Counted from the first letter of the stretch, positions 23,117 through 51,184 are shown. The stretch: 58,389 nt of DNA from Gammaproteobacteria bacterium (GCA_040266255.1 JBDQEV010000001.1:1-58389); one strand, 5' to 3'. A program made the numbers and translations. Notes: a model not told the origin generated them from the letters alone.

Positions 23117-25747
23117 ATGGCAAGGTATTTAAAATGCCTGTTGATTTTAATGTTGGTGTCATTACCAAGTCTCATATTTGCAAATAATGATGCAGCAGAA
23201 AATATCAGGACCATTGATTTTTTGAGTAAAAATCTTTTTACTGGTGACGTTATTGCAGCCAATACAAATGATCCATCACATATTTATTTGGGGTTGATTT
23301 TTGGTGAAATTGCTGGGCTGACGGGCAGCAGTATGGTAATGGAAATGTTCCGTATCTTTAACGTGGGTGTTTCTTTGGCATTGGTTATTTCTGTGATTTA
23401 TGTTGGTATTGCTGGCTTTTCTTCTTTACCAAGTGAGGGCGGAATGATTGGTTCTGGTCGCGCAAGTCCATTTATGATATTTAGAACAATAGCGGGGTTT
23501 GCGCTTGTTGCACCAACACCAACTGGCTACTCCTTGATTCAAAAGTTTGTAATGAATGTTGTGCTTTCTGGGGTTGTGGTTGCTAACTATGGTTGGAATC
23601 AGGTATTAGATAGCTTTTCTGAGAATAGTGGTTTACCAGAGGTTGTTGTAACCGGGCCAGATACAAGTGCATTATTAGCGAAGCCTAAAGACATAAAGAT
23701 ACAGTCAGATTCATCTGTGGGAGGAGAATTTGTGTATTCCCTACTGCAGCAGACTGAGAGTGGTAGTGTGATGGATAGCTTTCTGTGGCGGCTGAACGAA
23801 GTTGCTGCAAATGCGCTTTCACTGGTTGAAAATGCTGATATGATAGGCGGAACATATTTAAGTGCGCCAAAGTTTTTCGATGCTTCAAGTACAGCTGATT
23901 TTAAGAACGGGATCATTAAGATTGAGGCTGAGTTTAATGCTGCAGGGCAATTATTCAGAGAAACAGTTCTACAGATTCAGTTAAATAGTTTAGATGATAC
24001 TAATACTGTTGAAAAGCGCAAAGAGTTAACCAAAGCAATTAAGTTTTATTTGTTGAAAATTTTAAACGATACATCAGCTAGGTATCAATTAGAGCTGTTG
24101 AAAAGAGGAACAGTTACCTCTTTGGGTAAAGTCGAAAAAAATGAAGCAAAGTCATTAAAGGATAGTGCAATGAGGGGGTTTGTAGCACAGGCCCCTATAG
24201 AAGAAATTAAAGGCCCTTTGGATCCTGTAGCTTGGAGAAATCAGGCAAAAGGTTGGGGTTGGCTTGGTGCTGGTGTGTATTATTTGCAATTTGAATCTGC
24301 CTTGAAACAAGATCAGAAACCAAAACAAGTACAAGAAAAATTTTGGTTGCCAACTAGTATTACGCTTACTAGCTATCCTTGGATTAAGCCAGGCAAGAGG
24401 TCAATCAGTTGTAATGAGAATCCTCAAGCTGAGTTGCCTAATGTTAATTGTTTGAAAAGAGCTAAAATCGACAATGATACCCTACCAGCTTGGTTAAAAT
24501 ACTATTTAGTTGATGGGGCCGGAAGCTCGACTTCTTTTCCTCGTTCTAAAACAGACTCTAGTCGTGCTAAGTATATTTTACAGAAATTAAACCAATCCCC
24601 AGCATATATTCAGAGCTTCCCTAAAGTTCATTTGCCTCATAGTAAAGGCTTTAGTGTAGATGCTGAAATACCATTGAATAATATGAAAACTATGTCTGGA
24701 ACTGTGTTGGATGCACTACTAAACCCAGTAGATAAAAGTACTAATCAGAGCTTTCAAGGGGAGTATAATTCGCCTCTAAAAACGGCAATGTATGTCGGTT
24801 TTAAAATGATGAGTGCTGCAAAAACCTATTGGTCTAGTACAAGAGATAAGATTTTTGATGAGATACATGCTACACAGGGGGCTGCATATGGCACTACAGC
24901 AGCTGTGTTAATGGTAAAGTCTGCATTTGATGTTTTGGTTCAAATCAATAAGGATAGGGCTACTAAACTCAGGGTGATGCAGGTAGATGAAATCTATGGT
25001 CGTAATATGCTAGGTAAGTTGCCATCTGCGCTGATAGATCCCATTATGGATATGGTCAATATTATGACATCTATTGCAAAATCAATTTTGGGAATATATT
25101 TACCATTAGGAAATGGATTAGCAACTGTATATTTCTTAGCGGGTGCAATTTTAGGGATTTATATTCCATTTATCCCATCTGTGATCTATATTTTTTCAAT
25201 CTTGGCATGGCTGTTTGCGGTGATTGAGTCTATGGTTGCGTCACCGTTGATTACTATTGGTATTGCACACCCGGAAGGGCAAGAGGTGATGGGACGAGGA
25301 GAGCAGGCTGTCATGTTGCTGGTTGGTGTATTTTTACGTCCAGTATTGTCGTTAGTAGGTATGTTAATTGCTGTCTCACTGAGTACGATTGCAGTTGAAC
25401 TGTATAATGATATCTATTTAAATATAATGCCACTGTATCTAGATATGTTATATAAAGATGATTTAAGTCATGCGTTATTTGTGATATTTTTTGCAGCTGG
25501 TTTTGTGATTTTATATGTTTATGCATTATTGGTTATCATTGAGCAATGTTATTCACTAATTTATATGGTTCCGGATAGAATTTTAAAGTGGCTAGGTGGT
25601 CAGGCAGATATGGCTGGCGCAGGTGTGGGTGGCGCATTGCAACAAATCTCTTCTGGCTTATCTCAAGACGCTGGGGCAGCAGGTCAGGCTTCAGGATCAC
25701 AGTCAACATCAGGTGTGCATCAAGATACAAATATTAACAGAAAATAG
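23117..25747 (+). CDS. dotA: DotA/TraY family inner-membrane protein, paralog 1 (ATG 23117; the ORF extends to TTG 23111)
   Basis: Signal peptide; 'DPSHIYLGLIFG', 'MFRIFNVG', 'FRTIAGFALVAPTPTGYSLIQ', 'GWLGAGVYY', 'WLFAVIESMVASPL..IAHPEGQEVMGRGEQ..VFLRP', 'IYMVPDRILKWLGG'. Confidence 0.9.
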   Translation: MARYLKCLLILMLVSLPSLIFANNDAAENIRTIDFLSKNLFTGDVIAANTNDPSHIYLGLIFGEIAGLTGSSMVMEMFRIFNVGVSLALVISVIYVGIAGFSSLPSEGGMIGSGRASPFMIFRTIAGFALVAPTPTGYSLIQKFVMNVVLSGVVVANYGWNQVLDSFSENSGLPEVVVTGPDTSALLAKPKDIKIQSDSSVGGEFVYSLLQQTESGSVMDSFLWRLNEVAANALSLVENADMIGGTYLSAPKFFDASSTADFKNGIIKIEAEFNAAGQLFRETVLQIQLNSLDDTNTVEKRKELTKAIKFYLLKILNDTSARYQLELLKRGTVTSLGKVEKNEAKSLKDSAMRGFVAQAPIEEIKGPLDPVAWRNQAKGWGWLGAGVYYLQFESALKQDQKPKQVQEKFWLPTSITLTSYPWIKPGKRSISCNENPQAELPNVNCLKRAKIDNDTLPAWLKYYLVDGAGSSTSFPRSKTDSSRAKYILQKLNQSPAYIQSFPKVHLPHSKGFSVDAEIPLNNMKTMSGTVLDALLNPVDKSTNQSFQGEYNSPLKTAMYVGFKMMSAAKTYWSSTRDKIFDEIHATQGAAYGTTAAVLMVKSAFDVLVQINKDRATKLRVMQVDEIYGRNMLGKLPSALIDPIMDMVNIMTSIAKSILGIYLPLGNGLATVYFLAGAILGIYIPFIPSVIYIFSILAWLFAVIESMVASPLITIGIAHPEGQEVMGRGEQAVMLLVGVFLRPVLSLVGMLIAVSLSTIAVELYNDIYLNIMPLYLDMLYKDDLSHALFVIFFAAGFVILYVYALLVIIEQCYSLIYMVPDRILKWLGGQADMAGAGVGGALQQISSGLSQDAGAAGQASGSQSTSGVHQDTNINRK

Positions 25748-25818
25748 ATAGGATCTAGATGATTTGTGATATTATAGGGTGCAATATTTATTTAGTTTTG
25801 ATACGATCAAGCTAGGCT

Positions 25819-26265
25819 ATGGAGTTTATCATGCGTTTTGGTTTTAGAAGTACTTTTAAGTCCTTATTTAATGTAAGATCTTGGATTGCTTGGAACTCTT
25901 TACGAGACAATGCATCTTTCATACGGGGTGCCTATCAATCAATTTTGAAGTCAAAACCTAAGTATGCAAAGCCTCAAACGTTTTCTGAGGCAGTTCAGCA
26001 GTATGGATACACTGAGGAGTTTTTAAAGCAACAGCACGAAAAGTTCTTGTTTGCATCTAGAGCTTATCTATGCGCCTTAACTGTAGGCTGTAGTTACTTA
26101 GGGTGGTTGGCTTATACACAAGCATATCTTTCAGCAGCAGTCATGCTACCTTTCAACTTTTTATTATTTAGCTTTTACTTTAGAGAGAGCTTTTGGGCAA
26201 TGCAGGTTGAAAAACGTAAATTGGGCCTGAGCTTTATCGATTGGGTCAATGGTCATTTAGGATGA
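25819..26265 (+). CDS. icmV: Dot/Icm inner-membrane protein IcmV
   Basis: 'LFNVRSW', 'TFSEAV', two TM segments, 'FW..QVEKRKLGLSFIDW'; ATGA-coupled to the following dotA. Confidence 0.9.
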   Translation: MEFIMRFGFRSTFKSLFNVRSWIAWNSLRDNASFIRGAYQSILKSKPKYAKPQTFSEAVQQYGYTEEFLKQQHEKFLFASRAYLCALTVGCSYLGWLAYTQAYLSAAVMLPFNFLLFSFYFRESFWAMQVEKRKLGLSFIDWVNGHLG

Positions 26266-34417: not shown

Positions 34418-35575
34418 TTATTTGATTTTAATATCTAAGTCTTTTGATTTCTCATGTCTCTCTAAGCTAGAGAATACTTCTTTTGAGATCTTTTTTTGCT
34501 TATAAAGCTTACTGGCTACATCAAGCATTGTCTGCTTTTTGCTTTTTAGGATTTTACGTATTGATTTAGTAATGTTGGTTAGGTCTGACTCAAGGAGTGA
34601 CTCTCTAACAGCTTCATCAAATACTAAAAATTCTCTTAGTGCAATTTGTTTACCATCAGTAGATGGAACCAGTTGTTGCCATACAATTAGTCGCGTGGTT
34701 TCTATGATATCAACTGTTTTGCCTATTCTTTCACTTCTAGGGAAGCTACCAACTAGTCTTCTCACTGTTTCAGCTACACCGTTGCTGTGCACAGTGGTAT
34801 AAACAGGGTGACCAGTTAGTGCTGCATCAATCACTGCATTAATTGTTTCATAGTCTCTTGATTCACCAACAAGAATAAGTCGTGGCTTACGACGAAGTGC
34901 ATTTCTAACACCTGCTGCAAAGCTTGGAAGATGTTTTGGAATCTCAGTTTGCGAGATAACTGAACTAGGTTTTTCAATATTATCATAAACGAACTCAATA
35001 GGTGATTCGTAGGTTAGAATTTTTCGATGTGCTTCTGGTTGTTCTGCAATTTCTCTTATGATACCAGCAAGTAAAGTTGATTTACCTGATCCTGTAACAC
35101 CTGTGACATAAATTACACCGTCATTAGGACTCATCCCCGCAATAATTTCTTTTTCTAAATCTAACTCTTCAATTGAGGGTGGGTCAGTAGGGATGGTTCT
35201 GAGGGTGATTTGAATCCCCTCATGCCCATCAACAAGGCATGCAGTAGCATTCACCCTAAAGCGTAGTCTTTCTGCTCTAGAAGGCTTAAATTCATAATTG
35301 GTATCAATGTCTTCACCGCTTAATAGACGGGTAGTACCATTGGCACCATAAATGCCATTTAGAATATCTCCAACTTCAGGTGTTGTGAGCTGTTTTTTTG
35401 TAATAGGGTTTAGTTTGCCATACTCTTCAATATAGATAAACTCACCTGATTGAATCGTAATATCTGAGACTTTGAATTCGGCACAATGCTCTAGAATGAT
35501 ATTGAGGTCCATTTCTGCAAATCGACCAGGCTCATTCTTCATTAAATATTTGTTATCTTTTGTATCTTCGCTCAC
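34418..35575 (-). CDS. dotB: Dot/Icm PilT-like ATPase DotB
   Basis: 'SDITIQSG', 'RFRVNATAC', 'GIQITLRTIP', Walker A 'GVTGSGKSTLLA', 'TYESPIEFVYD', 'RNALRRKP..ILVGESRD'. Confidence 0.96.
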   Translation of the reverse strand: MSEDTKDNKYLMKNEPGRFAEMDLNIILEHCAEFKVSDITIQSGEFIYIEEYGKLNPITKKQLTTPEVGDILNGIYGANGTTRLLSGEDIDTNYEFKPSRAERLRFRVNATACLVDGHEGIQITLRTIPTDPPSIEELDLEKEIIAGMSPNDGVIYVTGVTGSGKSTLLAGIIREIAEQPEAHRKILTYESPIEFVYDNIEKPSSVISQTEIPKHLPSFAAGVRNALRRKPRLILVGESRDYETINAVIDAALTGHPVYTTVHSNGVAETVRRLVGSFPRSERIGKTVDIIETTRLIVWQQLVPSTDGKQIALREFLVFDEAVRESLLESDLTNITKSIRKILKSKKQTMLDVASKLYKQKKISKEVFSSLERHEKSKDLDIKIK

Positions 35576-38702: not shown

Positions 38703-39050
38703 ATGTTAAAGTCAATCGCAGAAAAACTGATTAAGTACTGTAAAGAAAACCAATGGACCTTTGTGCTTAGAGGTAAGGAATGCTCATATGATGAAATGTT
38801 TGCAGATTTCGGGGTATTACCAGGCATGCTCAAAAGAGCAGAAAAGTATACCATATTGTGTGAGGGGGCTTCGATAGGTGCAGAGTTTACTGATGATGAA
38901 AAAACATTGCTGGGTTATAAAGTCAAGTTAGAGAAATGTCACATCAAAGAGCCGGTCTTAATGTTGTATTTGTTATACGTGCTTGATAATATTGTTAATG
39001 CGGGGCATAATGGGTCTGAAATACAATTAGATCAATTAACATATGAGTAG
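38703..39050 (+). CDS. icmS: Dot/Icm adaptor IcmS
   Basis: 115 aa acidic protein, 'TFVLRGKECSYDEMFADFGVLPGMLKRAEK..LC', C-terminal 'LDQLTYE'; follows icmT. Confidence 0.9.
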   Translation: MLKSIAEKLIKYCKENQWTFVLRGKECSYDEMFADFGVLPGMLKRAEKYTILCEGASIGAEFTDDEKTLLGYKVKLEKCHIKEPVLMLYLLYVLDNIVNAGHNGSEIQLDQLTYE

Positions 39051-39570
39051 AATTTCAAGCAACTTTTTAATGCTATTGACACAGATTAATCAGTTAATAG
39101 TTAGTGCAAAAATTGAAAGAACGAAAGAAGAGTTAGAAAGGCTATCAAGTCTTCTTAGCACTAGTGGGATTAAATCAGATCAGTTATCTGAAGCTGATTT
39201 TCAAACCGGTACTGCTCAACACTATCGAGATAGAGCCAAGGTTATTTTAGATTGTGAGAGTAGTGAAGTCTTTCACAGTGGAGATAAGGTGACAAGGTAT
39301 GCAGTTCTTGCGCATGTAGAGGGTCCAAAAGGGATTTCGCCTAACTACCAGCTAAATGGCAGGCAAATATTTAATAATAAGGTCGAGGCAGAGTCTTTTG
39401 CAGTGCTAAATAGCTCTGATCAGATGAAGCTTTTTGTGATGCCGCTGAATGTGTGCGACAAGGATCTGCCAAATATACATAAGTTGTCTTTAAGGTGCTT
39501 AGGTATTAACAGTCTTGTCTTACAGCAGTTGCTGAATGAGCAGTCTGCAAATTGCAAAGAGTTTGCCTGA
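39043..39570 (+). CDS. Putative highly divergent IcmQ
   Basis: Lies between icmS and icmP; weak echoes of IcmQ motifs ('SSNFLMLL' ~ KSNFLRVI, 'GRQIFNNKVE' ~ SRPIYADEED, 'KLSLR' ~ LLTLK). Confidence 0.5.
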   Translation: MSRISSNFLMLLTQINQLIVSAKIERTKEELERLSSLLSTSGIKSDQLSEADFQTGTAQHYRDRAKVILDCESSEVFHSGDKVTRYAVLAHVEGPKGISPNYQLNGRQIFNNKVEAESFAVLNSSDQMKLFVMPLNVCDKDLPNIHKLSLRCLGINSLVLQQLLNEQSANCKEFA

Positions 39571-39700
39571 GAAGTTGAATTGTTTTAGGCGAATCAAATA
39601 AGTTGCTGCTTAATATAAACTATTCCTTGAAAGTCCCAGTAGTGTTTGAATTTTAGTCAAGTGCACTGTAGACTGAAAAGGTCTTCAATTGGATTTTTTC

Positions 39701-40855
39701 GTGAAAGGTGGCGGTGGGCAACAGCAACAGCCTGATCAGGCTCAAGACACGTTTTTACTGATCGGCTTTATAGTCGTCGTGGTGATTCTTGCGTGGTATA
39801 ACTACTCAGATGCGATAGTAAAGGTTATATTCTTATTTCGAGTTGCACTAGGAACTGCGTTGCTTTATGTGCTTGAACATGCTGATGTGTTATTTGAGCT
39901 CGTAGACTCAAGGTTGCTTGCAATTGATGATTTAAGGTCTTCTCTTACTGCAATGCGTTCTACGCCATATGGTGCAGTTGATTATGACAGATTGAAGCTT
40001 ATCTCAGAAGTATATGGCCATGCTTTTGCGTTACCAAATATTATCTTAGGGGTTTTCGGTGTTGCATATTCTTTATTCTTCCATCGATTTTCTCGTTTTT
40101 CAAAAGAGCACTCGATGCATTCATTGAGCCATCAGGAAGTAAAAAATTGGCCACAAATCGCATGTGTCCTAGGTAAGAATTTGATCAAAGCTGATGTTGA
40201 GACAGGTCCATGGAGAATGAGTGATAGGCCATTAGACTTTGCTAAAAAGCATAACTTAATTGAGCCTGAAACAGTGAAGGGAAAAGTAGTGGCTAGGCTA
40301 GATAAGGCAAAGTCAAGACAGATTTTTGCACTACAAATGGGGCCTGCTTGGAGTGGGTTAGAAGATATGCCGCCGTATGCTTTGGCGCTATTTGCAATTT
40401 TTGCAGCTCGAGGTGAGGGTGACGCAAAAGGTGCAAGAAAGCTACTTCGCCAGATTTCTGCTTCAGCAGGAGAGGGCGTATTGAACTTTGGTGGAACTAG
40501 ATTACTTTTGTTCAAACATGTTCGATCTTCACAAAAAGTGGGTCGTGCTGTTGGTCCTCATGCTTATTTATATACAGTAATGGCATCTATGCTTGAGTTA
40601 TCTAGAGAGGAAGGTGTGCTATCAGTTTCAGAATTCTTATGGTTAAAGGCGGTTGATCGTCAGCTATGGTATATGTTGTCCTCGGTAGGAAGAACAACTG
40701 CTTTTGTTGAAGTATCTGCACCTTATTCACATTGGCTGGTTGAAAAGCGTTTACGGCGTCCATTGAAGGTGCCAGTCTTTGATCAAGCAATTGAGGCATT
40801 AGATGACGCACTATCTAATATAGTCATAGATCCTGAAGAGATTAAAAATGGTTGA
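39701..40855 (+). CDS. icmP: Dot/Icm coupling-complex protein IcmP/DotM (probable GTG 39701; the ORF extends to TTG 39689)
   Basis: Q-rich N-terminus and TM segments; 'WPQI', 'GPWRM..PLDFAKK', 'FALQMGP.W', 'HAYLYTVMASML', 'FLWLKAVDRQLWYML', 'HWLVE'. Confidence 0.95.
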   Translation: MKGGGGQQQQPDQAQDTFLLIGFIVVVVILAWYNYSDAIVKVIFLFRVALGTALLYVLEHADVLFELVDSRLLAIDDLRSSLTAMRSTPYGAVDYDRLKLISEVYGHAFALPNIILGVFGVAYSLFFHRFSRFSKEHSMHSLSHQEVKNWPQIACVLGKNLIKADVETGPWRMSDRPLDFAKKHNLIEPETVKGKVVARLDKAKSRQIFALQMGPAWSGLEDMPPYALALFAIFAARGEGDAKGARKLLRQISASAGEGVLNFGGTRLLLFKHVRSSQKVGRAVGPHAYLYTVMASMLELSREEGVLSVSEFLWLKAVDRQLWYMLSSVGRTTAFVEVSAPYSHWLVEKRLRRPLKVPVFDQAIEALDDALSNIVIDPEEIKNG

Positions 40856-43112
40856 TAGAGGTGTAAGGCGAGAGCAGGAGCAAAATGCCAGCTTATTGGT
40901 TCGTGATACTAGGTCGTTTTCACAGAAGTTTTCAGACTTATTTAATAAGCCAGTATCTGCAGCAGCAGTGATATTCAGTACTGCAGTTGCTGCAGTCTTT
41001 CTGCCTGCATTCGCAGATATGCTGTTTTTAATCAATATTGTGTTTGTTTCTTTAGTGCTATTTAGGCATATAAAATTGCCATTTCGAGTGCCTAAAGCTT
41101 CTGGTATCAGTGATTTTAATGACTTAAACCCTGGAACTGGGAAACCAAATAAAGCAAGTGGTATTTATTACTTTGGGAATGAGAAAACAGATAAAAAAGA
41201 ACTCTGGTTTGGTGATACAGATATGCGTACGCACGTACTGATCTTCGGTTCTACAGGTTCAGGTAAAACAGTTTTTCTCATCGGGTTGGCATTCAATGCT
41301 TTGGTGCAAGCAAGTGGTTTTATTTATGTAGATGGTAAGGGTGATAATAGCTTATACGCGAATATATTTTCTATTGTTCGCTATTTAGGTCGAGAAGACG
41401 ATTTGCTGCTGATCAACTTTATGACTGGAGCAAAAGACATCATTGGTCCACAAGAAAAGCGTTTATCTAATACCTTAAATCCATTTGCAAGTGGCTCATC
41501 TAGTATGCTTGCAAACTTAGTGACTGGCATGATGGATTCGTCATCTGGGAGTGGTGATGGTGATATGTGGAAAGGTCGTGCGATTGCGTTTGTTGAAGCT
41601 CTGTTAAAGGTATTGGTTGCGATGAGAGACGCTGGCCATATTCTACTTGATGCCAATACAATTCGTAATTATTTCTCATTAGAGCGTCTTGAAGCAATGG
41701 CTGATAATGTATTCATTAGAGATAATGGACAATACTCAATTGATATGGGCTCACTACCAAGTGAAATCAAAGAGCCAATCATGAATTATTTATCGACATT
41801 GCCGGGTTATCAAAAAGGAAAGCGAGGTCAGCAAGTATCACAGGTGTTTGAGCAGCATGGTTATATTATAATGCAGCTTACACGTATCTTTACCTCTTTG
41901 GCAGATACTTATGGGCATATTTTAAGAACAAAGCTTGCAGAGGTTGATCTGAGAGATGTTGTATTAAATAGAAGAATTTTAGTTGTGCTCTTGCCTGCGT
42001 TGGAAAAGTCTCCAGATGAGCTGTCTAATCTAGGTAAAGTTGTGATTGCATCCATGCGCTCTATGATGGCAGCAGGTCTTGGAGACTCAGTAGAGGGGGA
42101 CTATAGAGATTTAATCTTATCAAAGCCTACAAATGCGGAAACGCCATTTTTATGTATTCTAGATGAGTATGGTTACTATGCTGTAAAAGGTTTTGCTGTT
42201 GTGCCTGCTCAGGCTAGGTCTTTGGGTTTCTCAGTTGTGTTTGCAGGGCAGGATTTGCCAGCCTTCCAAAAAGCATCAAAAGAAGAGGCTGCATCAATTG
42301 GTGCTAATACAAATATTAAAATTTGTATGAAGTTAGAAGATCCTACAGATACCTGGGAGTTCTTCATGAAAGGTGCAGGTGAGGCATATGTTACAGCAGT
42401 TGATAGCTTTAGTGCATCTCAAAACAGTATTTCTAATGCATACTTAGATACCAAATCGGCAAAGACAGAAAAACGAGCTAGAATTGACTTACTTGATCTT
42501 AAAGATCAGGGCTTAGGTGAAGCGCATATCTTCTTCAAGTCAGATATAGTTAGAGCTAAGACTTTTTATGCAAATCCTCCGCCATGTAAGAGAATGCGGT
42601 TGAATCAGTTCTTGAAAGTCGAGCCACCAGAGGATACCTACTTATATGATTTAGTGAAGGGAATTGAAGATTTTCAAGAGATGAGTTTTTCACAGTTGCC
42701 AGCAGTTGAAAATGATACAGTGCTTTCTGGAATGGTTAACGCTCTAAATGCTGATGACAACTATATTCAGGCAGCAATTAATATGCTGATGTCTAATGAA
42801 GGTGAGGCATTATTAACAGAAGACATTGTAGATGAAGGTGAAGGTAGTATTGACGTATTCTCTAGGTATCAAGTAGACGGGGTCACCTTATCTGCTATTA
42901 TGCCCAAGAGTGAAATTAGCAAGGTGCTGAATTTTTGTGGTAGATTTGCAGGTCTTTCTGAAACACAGTCTCAGAAAGAGGTTGACCAGCAGCTAGAAAG
43001 TATTCGTAAAATGACGGAGTACAGCATGAGCATGAATCAAGAGGATGTTGAGAGTTGCATAGAGGGTATAAAATATGTCAATGAGCATCTTAAGTTAGAG
43101 GAGGAGAAGTAG
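40848..43112 (+). CDS. icmO: Type IVB coupling protein IcmO/DotL
   Basis: 'RTHVLIFGSTGSGKT', 'YVDGKGD', 'DGDMWKGRAI', 'ILDEYGYYAVKGFAVVPAQARSLGF'. Confidence 0.97.
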   Translation: MVDRGVRREQEQNASLLVRDTRSFSQKFSDLFNKPVSAAAVIFSTAVAAVFLPAFADMLFLINIVFVSLVLFRHIKLPFRVPKASGISDFNDLNPGTGKPNKASGIYYFGNEKTDKKELWFGDTDMRTHVLIFGSTGSGKTVFLIGLAFNALVQASGFIYVDGKGDNSLYANIFSIVRYLGREDDLLLINFMTGAKDIIGPQEKRLSNTLNPFASGSSSMLANLVTGMMDSSSGSGDGDMWKGRAIAFVEALLKVLVAMRDAGHILLDANTIRNYFSLERLEAMADNVFIRDNGQYSIDMGSLPSEIKEPIMNYLSTLPGYQKGKRGQQVSQVFEQHGYIIMQLTRIFTSLADTYGHILRTKLAEVDLRDVVLNRRILVVLLPALEKSPDELSNLGKVVIASMRSMMAAGLGDSVEGDYRDLILSKPTNAETPFLCILDEYGYYAVKGFAVVPAQARSLGFSVVFAGQDLPAFQKASKEEAASIGANTNIKICMKLEDPTDTWEFFMKGAGEAYVTAVDSFSASQNSISNAYLDTKSAKTEKRARIDLLDLKDQGLGEAHIFFKSDIVRAKTFYANPPPCKRMRLNQFLKVEPPEDTYLYDLVKGIEDFQEMSFSQLPAVENDTVLSGMVNALNADDNYIQAAINMLMSNEGEALLTEDIVDEGEGSIDVFSRYQVDGVTLSAIMPKSEISKVLNFCGRFAGLSETQSQKEVDQQLESIRKMTEYSMSMNQEDVESCIEGIKYVNEHLKLEEEK

Positions 43113-43113: not shown

Positions 43114-43584
43114 ATGTGGAATAAGATTAAAATGTTAGCATTTGTATCAATAGTGTCATTGGCGCAAATTAATATTTCTAAAATAGAGTCAGACTTAAGA
43201 GCGTTTAATGCATATTTGACGCAAAATGGAGAAGAGGTTACAGTTGTTGTACCAATTAGTTCTATGTTTACAGGAGAAACAACTTTTGTGCAGAATAGAG
43301 CAGGCCCATTAGTAGAGTCCTTGATTGGCTTAATTGCACAGTCTAAAGGTATTGTGCAACTAGAAGCGCTTATCACACCTACAGCGGATGAGCAGCAGGC
43401 GCTCAGCAGCTCAATTGCTTATACTCAGGTAGTAGAGCTATCTAAAGTCTTATTGCAAGGTGGTGGTGAAATTAGTTATGCACCACTGACTGTAAAACTT
43501 CAACCTAGAAATAATGATTACGGCTTCTGGAAACGCTTTGGAACTGAAAATAGATTTATCCAAATGACATTGAGTATTGATTAA
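43114..43584 (+). CDS. icmN: IcmN/DotK-like OmpA-fold periplasmic protein lacking a lipoprotein Cys
   Basis: Position after icmO; 'LTQNGEEVTVVVPISSMF' resembles the IcmN/OmpA_C start and 'ENRFIQMTL' resembles the OmpA_C NRRVEI end. Confidence 0.6.
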   Translation: MWNKIKMLAFVSIVSLAQINISKIESDLRAFNAYLTQNGEEVTVVVPISSMFTGETTFVQNRAGPLVESLIGLIAQSKGIVQLEALITPTADEQQALSSSIAYTQVVELSKVLLQGGGEISYAPLTVKLQPRNNDYGFWKRFGTENRFIQMTLSID

Positions 43585-43671: not shown

Positions 43672-44292
43672 ATGTCAGATGATGTTTTAGAAACGGTTCG
43701 ACTAAGAACGGATTTCTACAAAGATGGCTACAGAAAGCTAGCAACCATTGTTCTTTTGTTGTGTGTTGCAAATGTGTTTTTGGGCTTGACCTTGGTTACA
43801 GTGTATTCCAAGCCAGAAGAAGTTCGATTTTTTGCGACATCAACTGACGGTAGAATTATTCCAGTAGAGCCACTCAATCGTCCTGGCAGAACCAATGCTG
43901 AGATACTAGATTGGACAGTCCGTGCCGCCTCTAATGTTTACTCATATGACTATGTGAATTATCGAGATGATTTACAAAGTGTTTCGGCGATGTTCACAGG
44001 TTCCGGTTGGCAAAGTTTCCAGGAAACTTTAACAAGTTCCAGAATGTTGAAAACTGTGATTGCAGAAAAGTTAGTTATGAACGCACAGCCTACTGGTGCT
44101 GCAAGTATTACAGAGCAAGGGCTGATTAATGGTAGGTATACCTGGAAGGTACAAGTGCCGCTATTGGTCAAGATGCAGGGAAATACGACTCTTAGTACAC
44201 CTGTGTTGGTCACAATGTTGGTCCAAAGAGTCAGTTTAGTGAATAATCCAGATGGAATAGGCATTATCCAAATATTAGTGAGTGAAGGCTAG
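43672..44292 (+). CDS. icmL: Dot/Icm IcmL/DotI (VirB8-like)
   Basis: 'LETVRLRTDFYKDGYR', 'FFATSTDGRIIP', 'YSYDYVNYR..LQ..S..FT..GW..F', 'GRYTWKVQVP'. Confidence 0.95.
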   Translation: MSDDVLETVRLRTDFYKDGYRKLATIVLLLCVANVFLGLTLVTVYSKPEEVRFFATSTDGRIIPVEPLNRPGRTNAEILDWTVRAASNVYSYDYVNYRDDLQSVSAMFTGSGWQSFQETLTSSRMLKTVIAEKLVMNAQPTGAASITEQGLINGRYTWKVQVPLLVKMQGNTTLSTPVLVTMLVQRVSLVNNPDGIGIIQILVSEG

Positions 44293-44930
44293 TGGTACAA
44301 GTTCAGTCAAAGGTAATTAATTTAGGCTTATTGCTAAGTTCAGTATCCTTATTGCTTTCGATTGCTTTTTATTTCCAAGCTTCTCAGTCAACGTATATTG
44401 ATGCAAAAACAGTGGCTGATAATTATTATATGGCTGCGAATGGAGATGTTCTATTTTCTTCAAAGGTAGAAAAAGTCAGTGATATTTTCTTGCTTGAGGT
44501 TCCGGTTAAATCAATGATTGAGGTAGCTCAGTGGGCTGCAAGAGTCTCTACAGATTTGTTCACGGTTGATTTCTTCTCTTACCAAGACCATTTTGAAGGA
44601 ATGAAAAACTTTTTTACAGATGAAGGGTGGAAGTCTATTAATCAAGCGATATACCAGTCGGGTTGGTTGTCTGATCTGATTGATAAAAAGCTAACAGCAT
44701 CAGCTGTTCTTGTTGATACACCCATTATATTGAATCATGGAAGTCTGAATGGGTTTTATAATTGGACTTTCAGCTTTCCGTTACTTGTTTCATATGAGAG
44801 TGCAAGTGAAAGAGGTGTGAAAGAACGCAGGTCCTTAATAGTACAGGTGAGAAGGATTCCAACTGATTTTTCACAAGGTAAAGCTGGGATAGCAATTGAG
44901 AGTATAGAGTCGTCAAAGGTCGGGATATAG
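44292..44930 (+). CDS. Second, divergent IcmL/DotI paralog
   Basis: Single N-terminal TM segment; 'QWAARV..LFTVDFFSY..FFTDEGW', 'KKLTASAV..P.I...G..NG.Y.W..SFPLLVSY', 'GIAIES'. Confidence 0.85.
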   Translation: MVQVQSKVINLGLLLSSVSLLLSIAFYFQASQSTYIDAKTVADNYYMAANGDVLFSSKVEKVSDIFLLEVPVKSMIEVAQWAARVSTDLFTVDFFSYQDHFEGMKNFFTDEGWKSINQAIYQSGWLSDLIDKKLTASAVLVDTPIILNHGSLNGFYNWTFSFPLLVSYESASERGVKERRSLIVQVRRIPTDFSQGKAGIAIESIESSKVGI

Positions 44931-44932: not shown

Positions 44933-45877
44933 ATGAAAATGAATGTTAAAAAGCTAAGATATGTTTTACTGGCAGTTTTTTCTGTCTCGCCAATTTATGC
45001 GCAGCAGTATCAGTCTTTAGACTTTCTGGACGATAATGCATCAGGGTCTAATTTAAGCGCTACGCCAGAAGTTGTGATGAATGCAAAGCAGGATGTGCAA
45101 AACGAAGCCTTTAACACGGTAAAGGAGTCTCTTTCTCCACTATCAGTTGGGCAGATTGATGAGTTAAAAGAGCTTTATAAGTCTATTAACCGTGCTTCCA
45201 ACTTAGAAAACAACCCGCCAACACCAACATTTTCTTCTATATCAGTTGATCTGCAGCCTGGTTCTGCTCCTCCAGCGATACGTTTGTCTGCAGGTTTAGT
45301 TTCATCATTGGTATTCGTGGATATTACCGGAGCACCTTGGCCTATTCGTGCTTATGATGTTGGTGATCCCACCAACTTTAACATCGTGTGGAACCAGAAT
45401 GGTGAGGATGAAACATCTATGACTAATACGCTCTTGATGCAGCCGATGTCACTTTATAAGGATGGTAACCTAGCTGTGATGCTTCAAGGTTTGAATACAC
45501 CAGTAATGCTTTCATTGATCCCAGGCCAAAAAGAAGTAGATTACCGGGTGGATATTCAAGTTCCAGGAAGAGGGCCGTTTGCTAAAGATACAGATACTAT
45601 GCTAAAAGCTTCTACTAACCCTGCTTTAAATCAGGTAATCAATAATATTTCACCAGATGGAAGTAAGTTACTTAAGGTCACAGGTGGGGCCGCAAGAGCT
45701 TGGTTGTTTGGTGATGTCATGTATGTAAGAACAGCACTGCCAATTGTTTCACCAGCGTGGAACGCAACAATGAGAGGTGCAGGTGGTACTGTCAGCGCTT
45801 ATGAATTACCAAAATCTCCTGTGATCTTGGTGATGGATAATGGGCGTATTCGTAAACTTAATGTGGAAGGGTTTTAA
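44933..45877 (+). CDS. icmK: Dot/Icm core-complex protein IcmK/DotH
   Basis: Signal peptide; 'VDLQPGSAPPAIRLSAGLVSSLVFVDITGAPWPI..YDVGDP', 'GNLAV.L.GLNTPVMLSLIPGQKEVDYRVD'. Confidence 0.96.
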   Translation: MKMNVKKLRYVLLAVFSVSPIYAQQYQSLDFLDDNASGSNLSATPEVVMNAKQDVQNEAFNTVKESLSPLSVGQIDELKELYKSINRASNLENNPPTPTFSSISVDLQPGSAPPAIRLSAGLVSSLVFVDITGAPWPIRAYDVGDPTNFNIVWNQNGEDETSMTNTLLMQPMSLYKDGNLAVMLQGLNTPVMLSLIPGQKEVDYRVDIQVPGRGPFAKDTDTMLKASTNPALNQVINNISPDGSKLLKVTGGAARAWLFGDVMYVRTALPIVSPAWNATMRGAGGTVSAYELPKSPVILVMDNGRIRKLNVEGF

Positions 45878-45879
45878 CA

Positions 45880-48681
45880 GTGAAAGATGATCAAAATAAA
45901 TCTCTCTCAGACCGGTTGGCAAAATTAGATTTTGCTCAGGTCGGGGCTATTGGCGGTGTTGCTCTAGTGGTTATTTTTCTAGGGTATATGTTTTTTGGGC
46001 CAAGTGATGCTGGTACGGCTTCTTCTCAGGTAGGCGGTAACCCAGAAATTGAGTCGTTACCTGGAGTTGGAGATCCATCTGTTGAGTATTCGAAGCTCAT
46101 CTCTTCTCAAAATCAGGCCTCTGTAGATGAAGCAGCTCGGTTAGGCCAAAGTAGTATTCCAACATTGATTAAGCCTCAATATTCTTTAGACATGGAAAAG
46201 TTCACTGATCAATATGACCAAAAACAAGTGCAAAGAGATGTAGATCGTTGTTCTCCTGAAAATCTTAAAAAAGCACGAGAAGCAGGCGTAAAGGCTTCAG
46301 AGCTTAGATGTTTTGGTTGCACACTTGAAGATTTGAAGAATGCTGGATATTCTGCAGCAGAGCTAAGAGCTGCTGGTTTCAGTGCTGAGGAGTTACTGGC
46401 TTCAGGTTTCTCAGTAAAAGATTTAGTTGATGCAGGTTATAGTATCAGTGAATTGCGAGCAGCAGGTGTTTCAGCCTCAAGTCTATTGGCTGCAGGTGTT
46501 TCCGTACACCAGCTATTAGATGCTGGCTTTACCCCTGAACAGTTACTGTCTGCAGGTGTTTCCATTGCTGATTTGAGAGCTGCAGGTGTGCCGTTAGCAG
46601 ATATGATTGCATCTGGCGCAAATTCTGGCGATATTGTTGATGGTGGGTATTGTGCTCGTGGGCTTCTTATTGCAACTGAGGACCAATCTCAAATTAAATC
46701 AGGTGGTGTTAAGGCAGAGGATTTATATGATGGTGGGGTTACAGTAAGAGAGTTGCTAGATCTTGACTATTCTGTGAGTGAAATTGCTGCAGCTGGTGTT
46801 ACACCTGCACAGTTCTTAGCAGTTGGCTTATCAGTAGATGATCTGTCAAGTGCAGGCTTTACGAATCGTGAGGTATCATTTGCAGAGAAAAATAGAGCAC
46901 AGCTTAAGAATGGTGAGTGTAGTGCACAATACATTGAATCTCAAATGTCGATGGGCGTTAATGCAAAAGTTTTGTTAAGCCTAGGTTGCTCAGCAAAATT
47001 AATGGCTGATGAGGGATATAGAGCTGCTGATTTAATTCAAGAAGGGGTGACACCTGGTCAAATGCGCGTAATCGGCTTTTCTGCATCTGATTTGGTTGCG
47101 CTTGGAGTTGGTTTAGAAGATTTAGTCGATGCTTGTTATGATGCTGCAAGTTTGCTTGAGGCTGGTTTTACGCCTGATCAATTGGTTGCTGCGGGTATTC
47201 CAATTCAAGACTTGTTGAATGCTGGTGTCAGTATTAGAGACCTTAAGTCAAGTGGCGTTGGTTGTGGTGCAATGTATAAAGCTGGTATTTCTGTTGAAGA
47301 ACTGTTCATGTTAGGCTGCGATGCAGAATCTCTACGTGCAGCAGGTGCAAGTGCTGGAGAGTTGCTTGCTGCTGGTTATTCAGTCAGCGAGCTGAAAAGG
47401 GCTGGTTTTGGGCTTGATGAGCTAATAGCAGCAGGCGTTTCAGCAAATGATTTACTTGCGGCAGGGTACAGTATAGATGACTTACTTGCATCAGGGATGA
47501 CTAAGGGTGATTTGATCAGAGCAGGTATTAATCCTGATGAATTATATGTGTCAGATACAAATACGAGCGGCTGTAGTCCAAAACAGATCGATATGATGCT
47601 AAACTCAGGCCTGAGTGTAAAAGAGATTTTAGACGATGGCTGTTCTATTGAGTCACTTTTAAATGCTGGAGTGAGTGTTTCGGAGCTTTTAGATTCTGGC
47701 GTAGATGCAAGAAGGTTGGTTGCTTCTGGAGTCAGTTCTAATGAGCTATTTGCAGCTGGAGTCAATGCATCTGAACTAAAAGGTTTAGATTCGACTGAAA
47801 ATCTTTTAAATGCTGGATATAGTATATTAGATTTAGTCAATGCAGGATTTTCTCAGTCTGAAATTGCTAAAAGCTCTTCTGCAGATGAAATTGCATTATC
47901 AGGTACATCATTGACTCGCAGCGATACAGACTTGCTATTAGAGGAGCAAGATAGAGAGGCAAAGATTCTAAGACTTGCATCAGCGATGCAATCACAGGCA
48001 AGCGGCCTATATTCTACTTGGGATAGCATGCCTGTACAGACTGTGAGTTCTTCTTCACTGACCCCTGAGAAATATGGTATGAATATTGTCAATGGTCAGC
48101 AAGAAAGTAAAGTATTGCAAGAGGGTAACTTCATTAAAGCAGGAAGTCTAATGTATGCGGTATTGGACAATGATCTAAACTCAGAAGATCCTACTCCAGT
48201 GCTTGCAACTATTGCTAATGGTCCACTTAAGGGATCAAGAGTACTAGGTAGCTTTGTGCAAAATGAAAACAAGCTGGTATTGAAGTTTGATCGAATCAAT
48301 CGGCCTACAAAAAATAGAACAGAAAGCATTTCTGTATTTGCTGTAGACGTTAATACAGTCAATAATGTTGAGATTGAGAGTCACTACTTGCTGAAATATG
48401 GCGCATTGTTTGGTGCATCGTTCTTATCTGGTCTCAATGATGTAGCCAAGAATATCGGTACAACTGTTTCGACATCAACAGGGGTGAATGGAACATCTGT
48501 CACAGTAGATGGTGGTAATATTAATCAATCTAAAATACTTGCGGCCGGACTAGGAAAAGTTGGAGATAACCTAGTGAGTGAGGTACAAAAGTTCCAAGAT
48601 AAAGAGCCAACAATCAGAATGCGGTCAGGTGCAACATTTGGCTTACTGGTTATGGACGACTTTGAAGATCAAGCAGACTAA
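45880..48681 (+). CDS. icmE: Dot/Icm IcmE/DotG (VirB10/TrbI-like C-terminus, central repeat stalk)
   Basis: N-terminal TM segment, 'IESLPG', dozens of 'L..AG.S..EL' repeats, C-terminal 'IKAGSLMYAVLD..NSED..PVLATI..GPLKGS.VLG', 'HYLLKYG.LF.ASFL.G'. Confidence 0.95.
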   Translation: MKDDQNKSLSDRLAKLDFAQVGAIGGVALVVIFLGYMFFGPSDAGTASSQVGGNPEIESLPGVGDPSVEYSKLISSQNQASVDEAARLGQSSIPTLIKPQYSLDMEKFTDQYDQKQVQRDVDRCSPENLKKAREAGVKASELRCFGCTLEDLKNAGYSAAELRAAGFSAEELLASGFSVKDLVDAGYSISELRAAGVSASSLLAAGVSVHQLLDAGFTPEQLLSAGVSIADLRAAGVPLADMIASGANSGDIVDGGYCARGLLIATEDQSQIKSGGVKAEDLYDGGVTVRELLDLDYSVSEIAAAGVTPAQFLAVGLSVDDLSSAGFTNREVSFAEKNRAQLKNGECSAQYIESQMSMGVNAKVLLSLGCSAKLMADEGYRAADLIQEGVTPGQMRVIGFSASDLVALGVGLEDLVDACYDAASLLEAGFTPDQLVAAGIPIQDLLNAGVSIRDLKSSGVGCGAMYKAGISVEELFMLGCDAESLRAAGASAGELLAAGYSVSELKRAGFGLDELIAAGVSANDLLAAGYSIDDLLASGMTKGDLIRAGINPDELYVSDTNTSGCSPKQIDMMLNSGLSVKEILDDGCSIESLLNAGVSVSELLDSGVDARRLVASGVSSNELFAAGVNASELKGLDSTENLLNAGYSILDLVNAGFSQSEIAKSSSADEIALSGTSLTRSDTDLLLEEQDREAKILRLASAMQSQASGLYSTWDSMPVQTVSSSSLTPEKYGMNIVNGQQESKVLQEGNFIKAGSLMYAVLDNDLNSEDPTPVLATIANGPLKGSRVLGSFVQNENKLVLKFDRINRPTKNRTESISVFAVDVNTVNNVEIESHYLLKYGALFGASFLSGLNDVAKNIGTTVSTSTGVNGTSVTVDGGNINQSKILAAGLGKVGDNLVSEVQKFQDKEPTIRMRSGATFGLLVMDDFEDQAD
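46246..47875 (+). repeat. Degenerate decapeptide (paired pentapeptide) coding repeats of DotG
   Basis: Recurrent ~30-bp units such as 'AGYSAAELRA/AGFSAEELLA/AGYSISELRA', interrupted by Cys-containing segments. Confidence 0.9.
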
Positions 48682-48695: not shown

Positions 48696-49403
48696 ATGGT
48701 AGATAATGATCCAAATAAAACGAATGAGCAAACAGCAGATCAGGGCTATGAGTTTCAGAAAGAAACAACACAAGAGTTTGGTAATGCTTCAGCTTCAGGC
48801 GGAACAGAAGACTTAATGTCTATTTTGCGTAACAAAAATGTTATGTATACGCTAGGAGGCATTGTAGGCTTATATGTGTTGCTCAACTTGTTTTCTTCAG
48901 GCAGTGAGATAGAGCCAGTAGAGGCTGAGGAAGTACAGCAGGAAGTCGCTGAGCCTCCAACCATGCAAGAGCAATCAGCATCCTATACTTCATTTGATAC
49001 AATGCTTAAAGAAACAACTGAGAAGGATGAAGATCTGGAAAAGTTGCAGCGTCAAGTCTCTTCACTCAATAGGCAAAATACAGACTTAAGATCTAGGGTT
49101 CAAACATTAGATCAGAAAATAGATGATATTAACATTAGTCTTAAGCGAACATCTGCACAGCTAGAAAAGCTGATTGATAAAGATATGGCAAAGTCTCAGG
49201 ATAAAAAAGAGGTTGTGTTAGAAGAATATCGCATTAAAGCTGTAATCTCAGGTAGAGCATGGTTGGTAGACCGATCAGGCAATAATACAACAGTGAAAGT
49301 TGGTGATAAACTTCCTACATATGGTAGAGTAACTGAAATTAAGCCAGTTGAGGGAATTGTGAATACTTCTTCAGGCAGGGTGATTGGATTTGATGCAAGT
49401 TAA
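48696..49403 (+). CDS. icmG: Dot/Icm IcmG/DotF
   Basis: Acidic N-terminus with 'YEF', one TM segment, coiled coil, C-terminal 'YRIKAVISGRAWL...TVKVGDKLPTYGRV..I....G.VNTSSGRVI'. Confidence 0.93.
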   Translation: MVDNDPNKTNEQTADQGYEFQKETTQEFGNASASGGTEDLMSILRNKNVMYTLGGIVGLYVLLNLFSSGSEIEPVEAEEVQQEVAEPPTMQEQSASYTSFDTMLKETTEKDEDLEKLQRQVSSLNRQNTDLRSRVQTLDQKIDDINISLKRTSAQLEKLIDKDMAKSQDKKEVVLEEYRIKAVISGRAWLVDRSGNNTTVKVGDKLPTYGRVTEIKPVEGIVNTSSGRVIGFDAS

Positions 49404-49959
49404 TTTGTTAACAGCTCTTTTTTTACTGACATTTGAGTTTGTTTCAGCTCAAACAGTTGGTGATAATATTGTGAAAGGACTGGCTGGTTCTGAAGAGTTT
49501 TTTGTTTACCTCTATTATGTAGTTGGAGTAGGTTTTGTATTCTCTGGGATTAATCGATTAAAAAAGCTTGGGCATAGAACTGCGTTTATGAATGTAGATG
49601 CGGGTGTCACTGGCCCAATGATGCTAGTTATTATTGGTGCTTGTTTAACTGCATTACCTACATTTCTAACAAGTATTAATAAGACCATCTACAATGAGGG
49701 AAGTATCGCTGCCGCTGCAGATCTCGCTTATGCAAAAAGTAATACTGATTTTATACAGCAAATAAAGCCAGTTATTTTCATCATTCAACTGATTGGAATG
49801 ATTGCACTACTGAGAGGATTTCTGATATTGTCTAAAGCAACTGGTCAAGGTGCGCAGCCTGGAACTATTTCAAAAGGTTTTATACATATCATTGGTGGCG
49901 TTCTAGCTGTGAATATTGTAGCAACTGCAAATGTCTTTACGAAAACTTTTGGAGTGTGA
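49393..49959 (+). CDS. icmC: Dot/Icm IcmC/DotE (ATG 49393)
   Basis: 'YVVGVGFVFSGINRLKKLG', 'IIQLIGMIALLRG..ILSK..GQGAQPGTISKGFIHIIGGVLAVNI'. Confidence 0.92.
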   Translation: MQVNLLTALFLLTFEFVSAQTVGDNIVKGLAGSEEFFVYLYYVVGVGFVFSGINRLKKLGHRTAFMNVDAGVTGPMMLVIIGACLTALPTFLTSINKTIYNEGSIAAAADLAYAKSNTDFIQQIKPVIFIIQLIGMIALLRGFLILSKATGQGAQPGTISKGFIHIIGGVLAVNIVATANVFTKTFGV

Positions 49960-50387
49960 TAGTGAAGAGTTATAGAAATATATTATTACTCAGTGTTGCA
50001 CTTCAACCTATGGTTGCTTTAACTGCTACTTGTGCTGAGTCAACAACACCTGGTACAATTGGTGCAATCTTATGTAATGTAAAAGATCAAGCGTTAGTTG
50101 GTATATTGATTTTCATTTATGCAGCATCTTTGTTGATAGGTTCTGGATTGATTGTTGCAGGTATTTTTAAACTTAAGCAAGTAAAAGAAAACCCAACACA
50201 GATTCCTGTTTCAACTCCAGGTGCATTTTTTATTGCTGGGGCAATGTTGTTATTTATACCGAATGTTTTTCCTAAGGTGAGACAAACAGTATTTGGAAGT
50301 TCTGCCAGTGGTTTGACGGGGGCGAATGAATATGCAGGAAAAACAGCCGGCGAGACTCAGGACATAACGAACTTATTTAGCGATTGA
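49956..50387 (+). CDS. IcmD/DotP family protein, paralog 1
   Basis: Signal peptide; 'GSGLIVAGIFKLKQVKENPTQIPVSTPGAFFIAGAMLLFIP'. Confidence 0.85.
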   Translation: MIVKSYRNILLLSVALQPMVALTATCAESTTPGTIGAILCNVKDQALVGILIFIYAASLLIGSGLIVAGIFKLKQVKENPTQIPVSTPGAFFIAGAMLLFIPNVFPKVRQTVFGSSASGLTGANEYAGKTAGETQDITNLFSD

Positions 50388-50734
50388 TGATGATAGGAAT
50401 ACTCAAAAAAAGCTTATTGGTGTTGTGCTTTAATTTGATTCAAGCGCAAACTATTACAGAGATCGCAATAAGTAGTAAACAAGATGTCATTAACGTTTAC
50501 AAAATGATGGGAGCACTGGCTTTTATTTGTGGGCTTTGTTTTATGGTTGTTTCAATTTTTAAGTTTAAACAGTTTAAAGATAATCCTCAGCAAACGACCG
50601 TTGGTACACCAATCATGCTTTTTTTTATTGGTGTTTTATTAGTCTATATGCCATCATTAGAAGATGCGTCTAGAGACACATTATTTAATGAAGCAGGTGA
50701 GTCATCATTTAATAAGATAAACACTTTATCGTAA
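50384..50734 (+). CDS. IcmD/DotP family protein, paralog 2
   Basis: 'GLCFMVVSIFKFKQFKDNPQQTTVGTPIMLFFIGVLLVYMPS'. Confidence 0.85.
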   Translation: MMMIGILKKSLLVLCFNLIQAQTITEIAISSKQDVINVYKMMGALAFICGLCFMVVSIFKFKQFKDNPQQTTVGTPIMLFFIGVLLVYMPSLEDASRDTLFNEAGESSFNKINTLS

Positions 50735-50752
50735 CTTTAACTGGAGAACATA

Positions 50753-51184
50753 ATGTTTAGATCACTCTTAATAAGAGCGTTGCCTTTGTTATCTTTAACT
50801 CAGGTCGTTGCACAGGCGGATGGTGCTGGGGGAGCTGGCACAGGACAAGGAATTGGATCAGTTGCTACTACGATTACTAGCCAGCTAGCAGCTGTTGGAA
50901 AGTTAGTTATTGGTGTTGCGCAAGTTGCTGGCCTTGTATTTATGGCTGCAGGTTTATTTAAGCTGAAACAGCATAAAGATAATCCACAGCAAATTCCAAT
51001 AGGAACGCCATTAACCATGCTTGTTATAGGTGCTTGTTTAGCGTTCTTACCAAGTCTTGTTGATACTGGTGGTGCAACTCTATTCGCTGATGGCGGAAAA
51101 AAAGGCGGATTTACTGGGCAAGGCTTCCAAGATGGTGCTGCTGACGCTGGTGGCGCTGCTGACGCTGCTGGTCGTCCTGGTTAA
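50753..51184 (+). CDS. icmD: IcmD/DotP, paralog 3 (most canonical)
   Basis: 'IGSVATTIT..LAAVGKLV..AQVAGL.F..AGLFKLKQHKDNPQQIPIGTP..ML.IG..L.FLPS....G.TLF'; GGAG RBS upstream. Confidence 0.92.
   Translation: MFRSLLIRALPLLSLTQVVAQADGAGGAGTGQGIGSVATTITSQLAAVGKLVIGVAQVAGLVFMAAGLFKLKQHKDNPQQIPIGTPLTMLVIGACLAFLPSLVDTGGATLFADGGKKGGFTGQGFQDGAADAGGAADAAGRPG
51134..51169 (+). repeat. 18-bp near-perfect tandem duplication (16/18) encoding GAADAG-GAADAA at the icmD C-terminus
   Basis: ggtgctgctgacgctggt followed by ggcgctgctgacgctgct. Confidence 0.8.

Follow-up and report, generated by a model that had tools for sequence, protein, structure and literature searches.

Why would a secretion machine built almost throughout from single-copy genes carry four different versions of DotA, the protein of its inner-membrane channel? 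The question is raised by a stretch of 58,389 nucleotides (nt) from a gammaproteobacterial genome (GCA_040266255.1, JBDQEV010000001.1:1-58389), hereafter the window, which holds a near-complete locus for Dot/Icm secretion (type IVB), flanked by cysS and an alpha/beta hydrolase gene. Among the 47 contigs of this genome (957 kb, 89% complete, 38-39% GC), the window is contig 1. The locus begins with dotA, icmV, dotA, dotA and dotA, with dotD, C and B on the opposite strand, and continues with icmT, icmS, an open reading frame (ORF) at the icmQ position, dotM, dotL, an ORF at the dotK position, two dotI genes, dotH, dotG and dotF, ending in icmC, three icmD-like genes, dotN and dotO. The genes icmW and icmX sit 15 kb upstream of the main locus, outside the interval covered by an earlier, sequence-only reading of this DNA, in which the multiplied subunits were taken for a Rickettsiales-style architecture and for an undescribed system. 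The locus represents a genuine variant, found throughout the family, of a system that was already known, and the word undescribed was too strong because the system had been described and its copy numbers tabulated in a 2022 supplement.

The best named relative by DotB is Candidatus (Ca.) Comchoanobacter bicostacola (83% identity), whose locus L073 has the same gene order and four dotA genes, the last cut by the locus end (G numbers denote genomes, g numbers genera and L numbers loci; G000 is the genome of the window). Ca. Comchoanobacter and Synchoanobacter have been placed in the order UBA7916, and the Comchoanobacter lineage is described as an obligate choanoflagellate associate with a Coxiella-like pT4SSi, all genes of which are expressed (PMC9418006). 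From kinship and genome size we infer a similar way of life for the window organism; the host-dependent, small-genome lineage proposed earlier agrees with the small genomes and with the host association of the named relative. The genome scan with DotB as query returned eight loci, and that with DotA copy 2 no relative.

A family-wide DotA array on one machine

The genome encodes one Dot/Icm machine, with four DotA, three IcmD-like and two DotI proteins and with the remaining parts, including IcmX, single. No further dotA, dotI or icmD-like copy was found in all 47 contigs of the 89% complete genome by tblastn and family profiles, and dotB, C, D, F, G, H, L, M, N and O as well as icmS, T, V and W occur once each. 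The counts of the sequence-only reading were right, as judged by intact ORFs, family models and the whole-genome search, and its single-copy ATPases and outer-membrane core are borne out over the 47 contigs. It is also true that only membrane or pilin-like subunits are multiplied, yet other membrane subunits, namely DotM, IcmT, IcmC, DotF and DotG, are single too. All parts of the locus belong to Dot/Icm families, and no descent from a type IVA vir system was found.

All four DotA ORFs are uninterrupted and score above the cut-off of the DotA/TraY model TIGR04346 (100 bits) and below that of the Legionella-type model NF033886 (500 bits), and the solved DotA is the sole significant match by sequence (phmmer) and by fold. 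Spacings along the dotA-icmV-dotA-dotA-dotA run are 71, -25, -14 and -50 nt; terminator-like sites are rarer than chance (5 vs 10.1), and a promoter scan stayed at chance level (49 vs 54.7). Over 345 core columns the four proteins are 24-35% identical, and their middle (periplasmic) domains show no mutual match at E 10. Against the orthologs in the family genome G001, the cores are 44-65% identical and the middle domains 23-29%. No copy has lost either membrane region or the conserved positions of the core motif.

DotA copies were counted by means of a profile that covers 104 positions of the C-terminal core. Among 31 family genomes, 24 have at least three DotA (five have four), 4 have two, 1 has one and 2 have none, the seven low-count genomes being 53-87% complete; the number never exceeds four. 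A fourth core in G029 was apparently one gene split over two contig ends, and this genome was counted as having three; apparent DotA-DotA fusions (open frames of 1485-2306 amino acids (aa)) were likewise dismissed as neighbouring genes in one frame with stops between them. The outside set comprised 91 gammaproteobacterial genomes, chosen as DotA-positive in a class-wide survey of 400 that left G277 unscored, and contained 3 without a core, 66 with one, 17 with two, 5 with three and none with four. Repeated duplication of dotA has taken place in this part of the class, and three or four copies as the norm are special to the family. Its sister on the DotH tree, G056 (support 90/77, not firm), lies outside it and has three dotA in tandem. 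Copies within family genomes are 21-47% identical over the core columns, vs 43-96% for duplicates outside, which are mostly sisters within their own genome. About 11 kb of dotA is kept in genomes of 0.9-1.9 Mb; the suggestion that dotA expansion tracks small genome size failed outside the family (rho 0.07, p 0.5, n=88, kin not being independent). In three outside genomes the whole icmV-dotA unit has recently been duplicated (L068:6237-11816 in G314, L032:6985-12911 in G058 and L063:6218-14219 in G309), with cores 71-96% identical, and these cases may be interpreted as early stages of the process that gave the family arrays.

In a maximum-likelihood tree of 76 of 96 DotA rows (20 outgroup rows dropped), the DotAs of the family and of G056 form one group (99/94) nested among other DotAs. 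The copy that follows icmV, class I, forms a supported clade in 13 of 19 family genomes (14 rows, 100/97); class II forms one in 16 of 19 (97/92), the other three adjoining at weaker support; and class III forms one in 8 genomes (97/95). Gene-position labels change 12 times on the tree, vs 44.9 times when shuffled, and monophyly of the window's four copies was rejected by the approximately unbiased (AU) test on 41 rows (p-AU 2e-6). The extra copy 1, upstream of icmV, is common to the window genome, G001, G008 and G023 (the last assigned by class profile). Further copies are of separate origin, namely the upstream ones in g1/g8 and in g4/g5, the last one in g3/g7/g12, and single cases in G002, G009 and G012. 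Conservation between genera is highest in class I (44%, vs 29% and 31% in the other classes). Class II deviates where class I and the outgroups are conserved, and 18 of 19 class II rows share a proline found in no other class. In two clades the last copy ends in a long C-terminal tail, with medians of 202 and 272 aa (vs 57-90); in copy 4 of the window this tail runs 213 aa past the last conserved Trp. Rather than varying at random among relatives, the DotA array is family-wide and old, and its copies are sorted largely by gene position across genera.

The channel, its cap and the other multiplied subunits

DotA has only recently been established as the pentameric VirB6 counterpart and the gate of Dot/Icm. 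According to in situ cryo-electron microscopy (cryo-EM), Legionella DotA assembles as a pentamer and resembles VirB6 in having two membrane helices at the N-terminus and five hydrophobic helices, and its large extended domain docks a pentamer of IcmX, like VirB5 (bioRxiv 10.1101/2025.06.23.660953); a 2025 review uses the names DotA-B6 and IcmX-B5. The equivalence of DotA and VirB6, anticipated by the sequence-only reading, is accepted here because of the published structure and not because of our own model. This model, of class II DotA (copy 3; predicted local distance difference test 70, low in the middle), aligns with solved DotA at Z 17.2 (root-mean-square deviation (rmsd) 4.4, 389 aligned) and with TrwI/VirB6 chains at Z 6.9-7.4, within the helical background (rmsd 6.1-6.6, 239-257 of 260-272 residues). 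The TrwI alignment spans both membrane regions, a notable coverage, at a Foldseek E of 1.7. No sequence link between DotA and VirB6 was found, phmmer matching DotA only.

The partner of DotA was found with a 22-row IcmX profile that matches only solved IcmX (PDB 9ngy); as a single-sequence query, window IcmX gave no match. IcmX is present in 25 of 30 relatives, 18 of which have one match and 7 two or three, as separate ORFs in G008, G023, G015, G016 and G009 and more weakly in G025 and G007. Two icmX genes were seen in 0 of 25 outside genomes, the double matches in G209 and G226 lying inside one ORF in each. The tandem paralogs (three in G015, L093:3478-11222; three in G016, L094 and L095; two in G008, L098; two in G023, L101) are 24-30% identical, and the IcmX proteins of the family are mostly 550-1100 aa long, vs about 300-490 aa for most genomes outside it. 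Compared with their G001 counterparts, IcmX and the DotAs rank among the most weakly conserved parts in the window (29-40% identity, vs 83% for DotB). In Legionella, DotA and IcmX are reported to be under recombination and selection (58-Legionella paper).

The two full DotI of the window are 26% identical over 118 aa, and no separate DotJ lies in the operon. Among 20 family operons, 10 have two full DotI without DotJ, 7 have DotJ and one DotI, 1 has both and 2 have one DotI alone; two DotI are found in the window and in 11 of these 20 relatives' operons, and DotI doubling alternates with DotJ in 17 of 20. It is an already known solution, for in Coxiella a duplicated DotI takes the place of DotJ, and DotI and DotJ form a heterocomplex (PMC4454188). 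The second DotI of the window belongs to a clade whose six genera are also those of DotA class III, an overlap that reflects common descent. In genera g4 and g5 (L036, L047, L048, L051), the icm operon is broken after icmC by an inverted icmD and an inserted Hsp90 gene, dotN and dotO are elsewhere, and the second DotI lies upstream, at the expected place of DotJ.

The three IcmD-like genes, 29-44% identical to one another, are matched by no IcmD-named model and owe their name to position, to DUF6750/TraQ matches and to labels in the published table of a relative. IcmC/D units have a median of 5 in 23 family genomes and of 3 in 25 others. Their number does not covary with that of DotA (rho -0.04 inside the family, where 8 of 31 genomes with fragmentary counts were left out, and 0.06 outside), and in G056 three dotA go with a single icmD and a single dotI within the operon. 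The IcmD tree, from which 4 rows without the anchor motif were lost, indicates lineage-level turnover with little resolution. The proposed linkage of dotA and icmD expansions, and with it a coordinated three-part package, is not supported, since DotI doubling is known and mostly alternates with DotJ and IcmD turns over by lineage. A better description is that of one chassis whose central gate (B6, sometimes B5) has expanded and diversified.

As regards the pilin-like nature of IcmD, its predicted structure forms a long hairpin of helices; in a comparison with 48,161 chains, the top match was the archaeal conjugation pilin 8dfu (Z 7.1, rmsd 2.5, 75 of 84 aligned), tied with unrelated hairpins and within background. 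No pilin was matched by Foldseek (nothing below E 0.001) or by sequence, and an IcmD profile retrieved only designed coiled coils among solved sequences. The TraQ model matches 24 of 52 IcmD-like proteins, TraQ/TraR have been linked indirectly to VirB2 by profile comparison (PMC4027160), and no pilus has been observed in Dot/Icm (bioRxiv 10.1101/2025.06.23.660953). A pilin-like IcmD is a lead. Fused IcmD-like ORFs of two or three units (246-415 aa) occur in g3, g7 and g12 (L035:13791-14564, L038:7735-8982, L041:8465-9232, L049:8273-9031, L052:8842-9582) and suggest that IcmD units may work side by side.

How four DotA proteins may serve one machine

We give an even chance to the reading that the four DotA proteins together build a single mixed channel of five subunits in the inner membrane, with the one IcmX as its cap. 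It is favoured because of the packed gene run, the similar read levels, the limit of four copies, two classes kept almost everywhere, the class-specific residues and the usually single IcmX. In the Comchoano-1 metatranscriptome, all four dotA ORFs appear at similar low levels (4/7, 8/5, 11/6 and 4/11 reads in two samples; PMC9418006). Three to four DotA, never more, fit a ring of five slots. After an early duplication, the copies would have divided the work among a conserved class I, a kinked class II and a long-tailed last copy; the mixed ring would be asymmetric and its host-exposed gate free to diversify, as suspected for VirB6 of Rickettsiales, of which the four Ehrlichia paralogs are reportedly expressed and interact. 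The second DotI would stand in for DotJ, and the IcmD copies would be an independent, faster-turning expansion. Somewhat doubtful is the wider proposal of an obligately asymmetric gate throughout the Comchoanobacterales, that is, a hetero-pentamer of three to four specialised DotA with fixed roles, in some lineages with a mixed IcmX cap, as a second independent origin of a multi-VirB6 stalk.

Several points weigh against a mixed ring. The case for it in this organism is made from genes, and the Comchoano-1 reads are few and come from a population, not from single cells. The IcmX pentamer of Legionella is docked by five extended domains that are identical (bioRxiv 10.1101/2025.06.23.660953), a symmetry that unrelated domains would break. 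The 7 of 25 IcmX-bearing family genomes with two or three IcmX-like genes could pair them with separate homo-rings. Third and fourth DotA copies arose several times, and both g10 genomes (81% and 64% complete) show two DotA; stoichiometry is therefore not fixed across the family. A five-chain ring prediction from C-terminal cores (two of class I and one of each other) scored 0.01 against a mark of 0.32, with controls that did not fold, and is counted neither for nor against the mixed ring.

The full membrane core and DotA-like fold kept by each copy would also suit interchangeable gates, each paralog forming its own homo-pentamer, so that several machines on one chassis would serve different hosts, membranes, stages or substrates. 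The tandem IcmX paralogs (G015, G016, G008, G023) could be matching caps, DotA and IcmX rank here with the parts that change fastest and are subject to recombination and selection in Legionella, and the same two options, mixed or separate complexes, are open for Rickettsia (PMC8035066). We nevertheless consider such gates unlikely: the window and 18 of 25 relatives hold one IcmX for two to four DotA with dissimilar docking domains, and the packed gene run and similar read levels give no sign of switching. Quite improbable is a channel of class I alone, with the other copies given new roles, such as those of assembly aids or of host-contact proteins that are shed or displayed on the surface. 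In conservation class I ranks highest, and it keeps its place beside icmV; Legionella DotA is also secreted (58-Legionella paper), and the last copy bears a long tail, but all copies retain both membrane regions and the core motif positions, which would be needless in a free decoy. That dotA is merely prone to tandem duplication, the extra copies being redundant or decaying, accords with the 22 of 88 DotA-bearing genomes outside the family that have two or three cores, mostly as sister pairs within a genome. For the family this explanation is very improbable and largely refuted, as the copies are 21-47% identical, intact and kept by class across genera in reduced genomes, with cores conserved about twice as well as middle domains.

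Remaining genes and comparison with known systems

The features of the window are listed below. Within the coupling complex, DotM and DotN exceed model cut-offs (NF033890, NF038221) and IcmW its Pfam cut-off, and the IcmS match is weak; the core complex proteins DotC, D, F, G and H are each matched by Pfam/NCBIfam and each single. The putative DotO, a 1016-aa ORF at the expected place, is 73% identical to that of G001. The true start of dotN is probably later than 51057. No DotU match was found in the genome (89% complete), and IcmF was not searched for; if the absence of DotU is real, the machine would be without the usual polar-targeting pair. In the family, DotG lengths range between about 925 and 1853 aa, and the window copy holds a long decapeptide-repeat region. 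The methyltransferase domain encoded between dotD and icmT is matched by PF02636 in 5 of 7 aligned relatives; many family genomes have its gene at this position (e.g., G001, G006, G008, G012, G013, G015, G018 and G029), and G002, G010 and G011 do not.

Features of the window, with the evidence for each assignment
Feature	Coordinates	Strand	Evidence and remarks
icmX (VirB5 counterpart), 606 aa	5461..7281	-	single; DotA-channel cap; 22-relative profile vs solved IcmX 9ngy, E 1.1e-16; downstream of icmW
120-aa ORF	7282..7644	-	between icmW and icmX; no Pfam/NCBIfam match; same place in G001, G008; signal-peptide-like start, Pro/Ser/Lys-rich tail
icmW	7637..8068	-	PF23130 E 2e-26
dotA copy 1, 878 aa	23111..25747	+	TIGR04346 161 bits; 3-row clade 100/100
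icmV	25819..26265	+	single; NF038219 E 1e-18; between dotA copies 1 and 2
dotA copy 2, class I, 979 aa	26241..29180	+	TIGR04346 236 bits; solved DotA E 3e-38
dotA copy 3, class II, 834 aa	29167..31671	+	TIGR04346 154 bits
dotA copy 4, class III, 928 aa	31622..34408	+	TIGR04346 146 bits
dotB, ATPase	34418..35575	-	single; TIGR02524 528 bits, over cut-off
dotC	35629..36381	-	single; PF16932
dotD	36390..36905	-	single; PF16816
458-aa protein gene	37006..38382	-	between dotD and icmT; S-adenosylmethionine-dependent methyltransferase domain, tetratricopeptide repeat-like C-terminus
icmT	38394..38699	+	NF038220, over cut-off
icmS	38703..39050	+	PF12608 E 6e-5, under cut-off; position
ORF at icmQ position	39043..39570	+	no family match; presumably icmQ, by position
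dotM	39689..40855	+	NF033890 368 bits, over cut-off
dotL, coupling ATPase	40848..43112	+	single; PF12696, NF041447
ORF at dotK/icmN position	43114..43584	+	no family match; named from position alone
dotI copy 1 (VirB8 counterpart)	43672..44292	+	NF038072 183 bits, over cut-off; PF11393 178 bits
dotI copy 2, divergent	44292..44930	+	PF11393 92.5 bits; 8-genome clade 99/99
dotH	44933..45877	+	single; PF12293; presumably the VirB9 counterpart
dotG	45880..48681	+	single; NF033900, PF25296
dotF	48696..49403	+	single; NF038218 E 4e-26
icmC/dotE-like	49384..49959	+	single; TraQ model E 1e-7; position
icmD-like copy 1	49956..50387	+	DUF6750 E 0.0015; 29-44% identity to copies 2 and 3
icmD-like copy 2	50384..50734	+	39% identical to copy 3, E 7e-20
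icmD-like copy 3	50753..51184	+	DUF6750, over cut-off; helical-hairpin model
dotN/icmJ	51057..51797	+	NF038221 215 bits, over cut-off, match from residue 46
dotO/icmB (VirB4 counterpart)	51813..54863	+	single; weak VirB4-type matches; position

One paper reportedly mentions icmD duplication in Legionella. Otherwise, no discussion of multi-copy dotA or icmD was found in the open literature, subscription papers and bioRxiv supplements being outside the scope, and none of multi-copy dotA in print for Coxiella. The text of the 58-Legionella paper contains neither 'duplicat' nor 'paralog'. A Legionellales ancestral-reconstruction paper marks multi-copy genes of the type IVB system in a supplementary figure, which may already show dotA duplicates. 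The closest record is the 2022 Comchoanobacter paper, with the same gene order and counts: its Supplementary Data 9 gives 4 DotA, 3 IcmD and 2 IcmL per genome for two genomes, with the label column off by one row, and its main text has 0 occurrences of dotA and no comment on the multiplication (PMC9418006). Paralog classes and a comparison with VirB6 are absent from the accessible parts of that paper.

The Legionella pneumophila Dot/Icm system has the same gene set, with homologous DotA (E 3e-38; Z 17.2) and IcmX (E 1e-16); its solved ring is a homo-pentamer of one DotA, whereas the window has four DotA, two full DotI without DotJ, three IcmD-like proteins and no DotU match. Coxiella burnetii, like the window, has two DotI replacing DotI and DotJ (PMC4454188). 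Compared with TraQ/TraR of IncI plasmids and VirB2 pilins (PMC4027160), the IcmD-like proteins share TraQ-model matches (24 of 52) and a modelled hairpin fold, and no pilus has been seen in Dot/Icm. The findings point to the DotA-IcmX gate as the part that these protist associates diversify, and the family together with at least 17 mostly recent duplications elsewhere forms a series graded by divergence, from copies nearly identical to copies wholly diverged.

Among the Rickettsiales, Anaplasmataceae carry multiple VirB2 pilins. The parallel with the rvh (type IVA) system drawn by the sequence-only reading holds for the VirB6-type subunit, which in rvh is present in several paralogs, up to about 80% diverged and some with long extensions, and for the duplicated VirB8-type subunit, a likeness already known, in small host-dependent genomes (PMC8035066). 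It is tentative for the pilin and does not extend to VirB4, VirB9 and VirB5, as rvh duplicates the first two and is without the third (PMC8035066), whereas dotO and dotH are single in the genome and IcmX is present; moreover, the main variable region of window DotA is an internal periplasmic domain and not terminal extensions alone. DotA and rickettsial VirB6 belong to different classes of type IV secretion systems, and the two arrays therefore arose independently. Whether the four or five VirB6 paralogs of Rickettsiales form mixed or separate complexes is an open question (PMC8035066), of which a marine small-genome family with stable DotA classes is an independent replicate. If the obligately asymmetric gate is true, hetero-oligomerisation of the central five-fold channel would be a repeated answer of obligate host-associated bacteria, and it would suggest that the five positions of a single ring are occupied by the products of the four to five rvhB6 genes.

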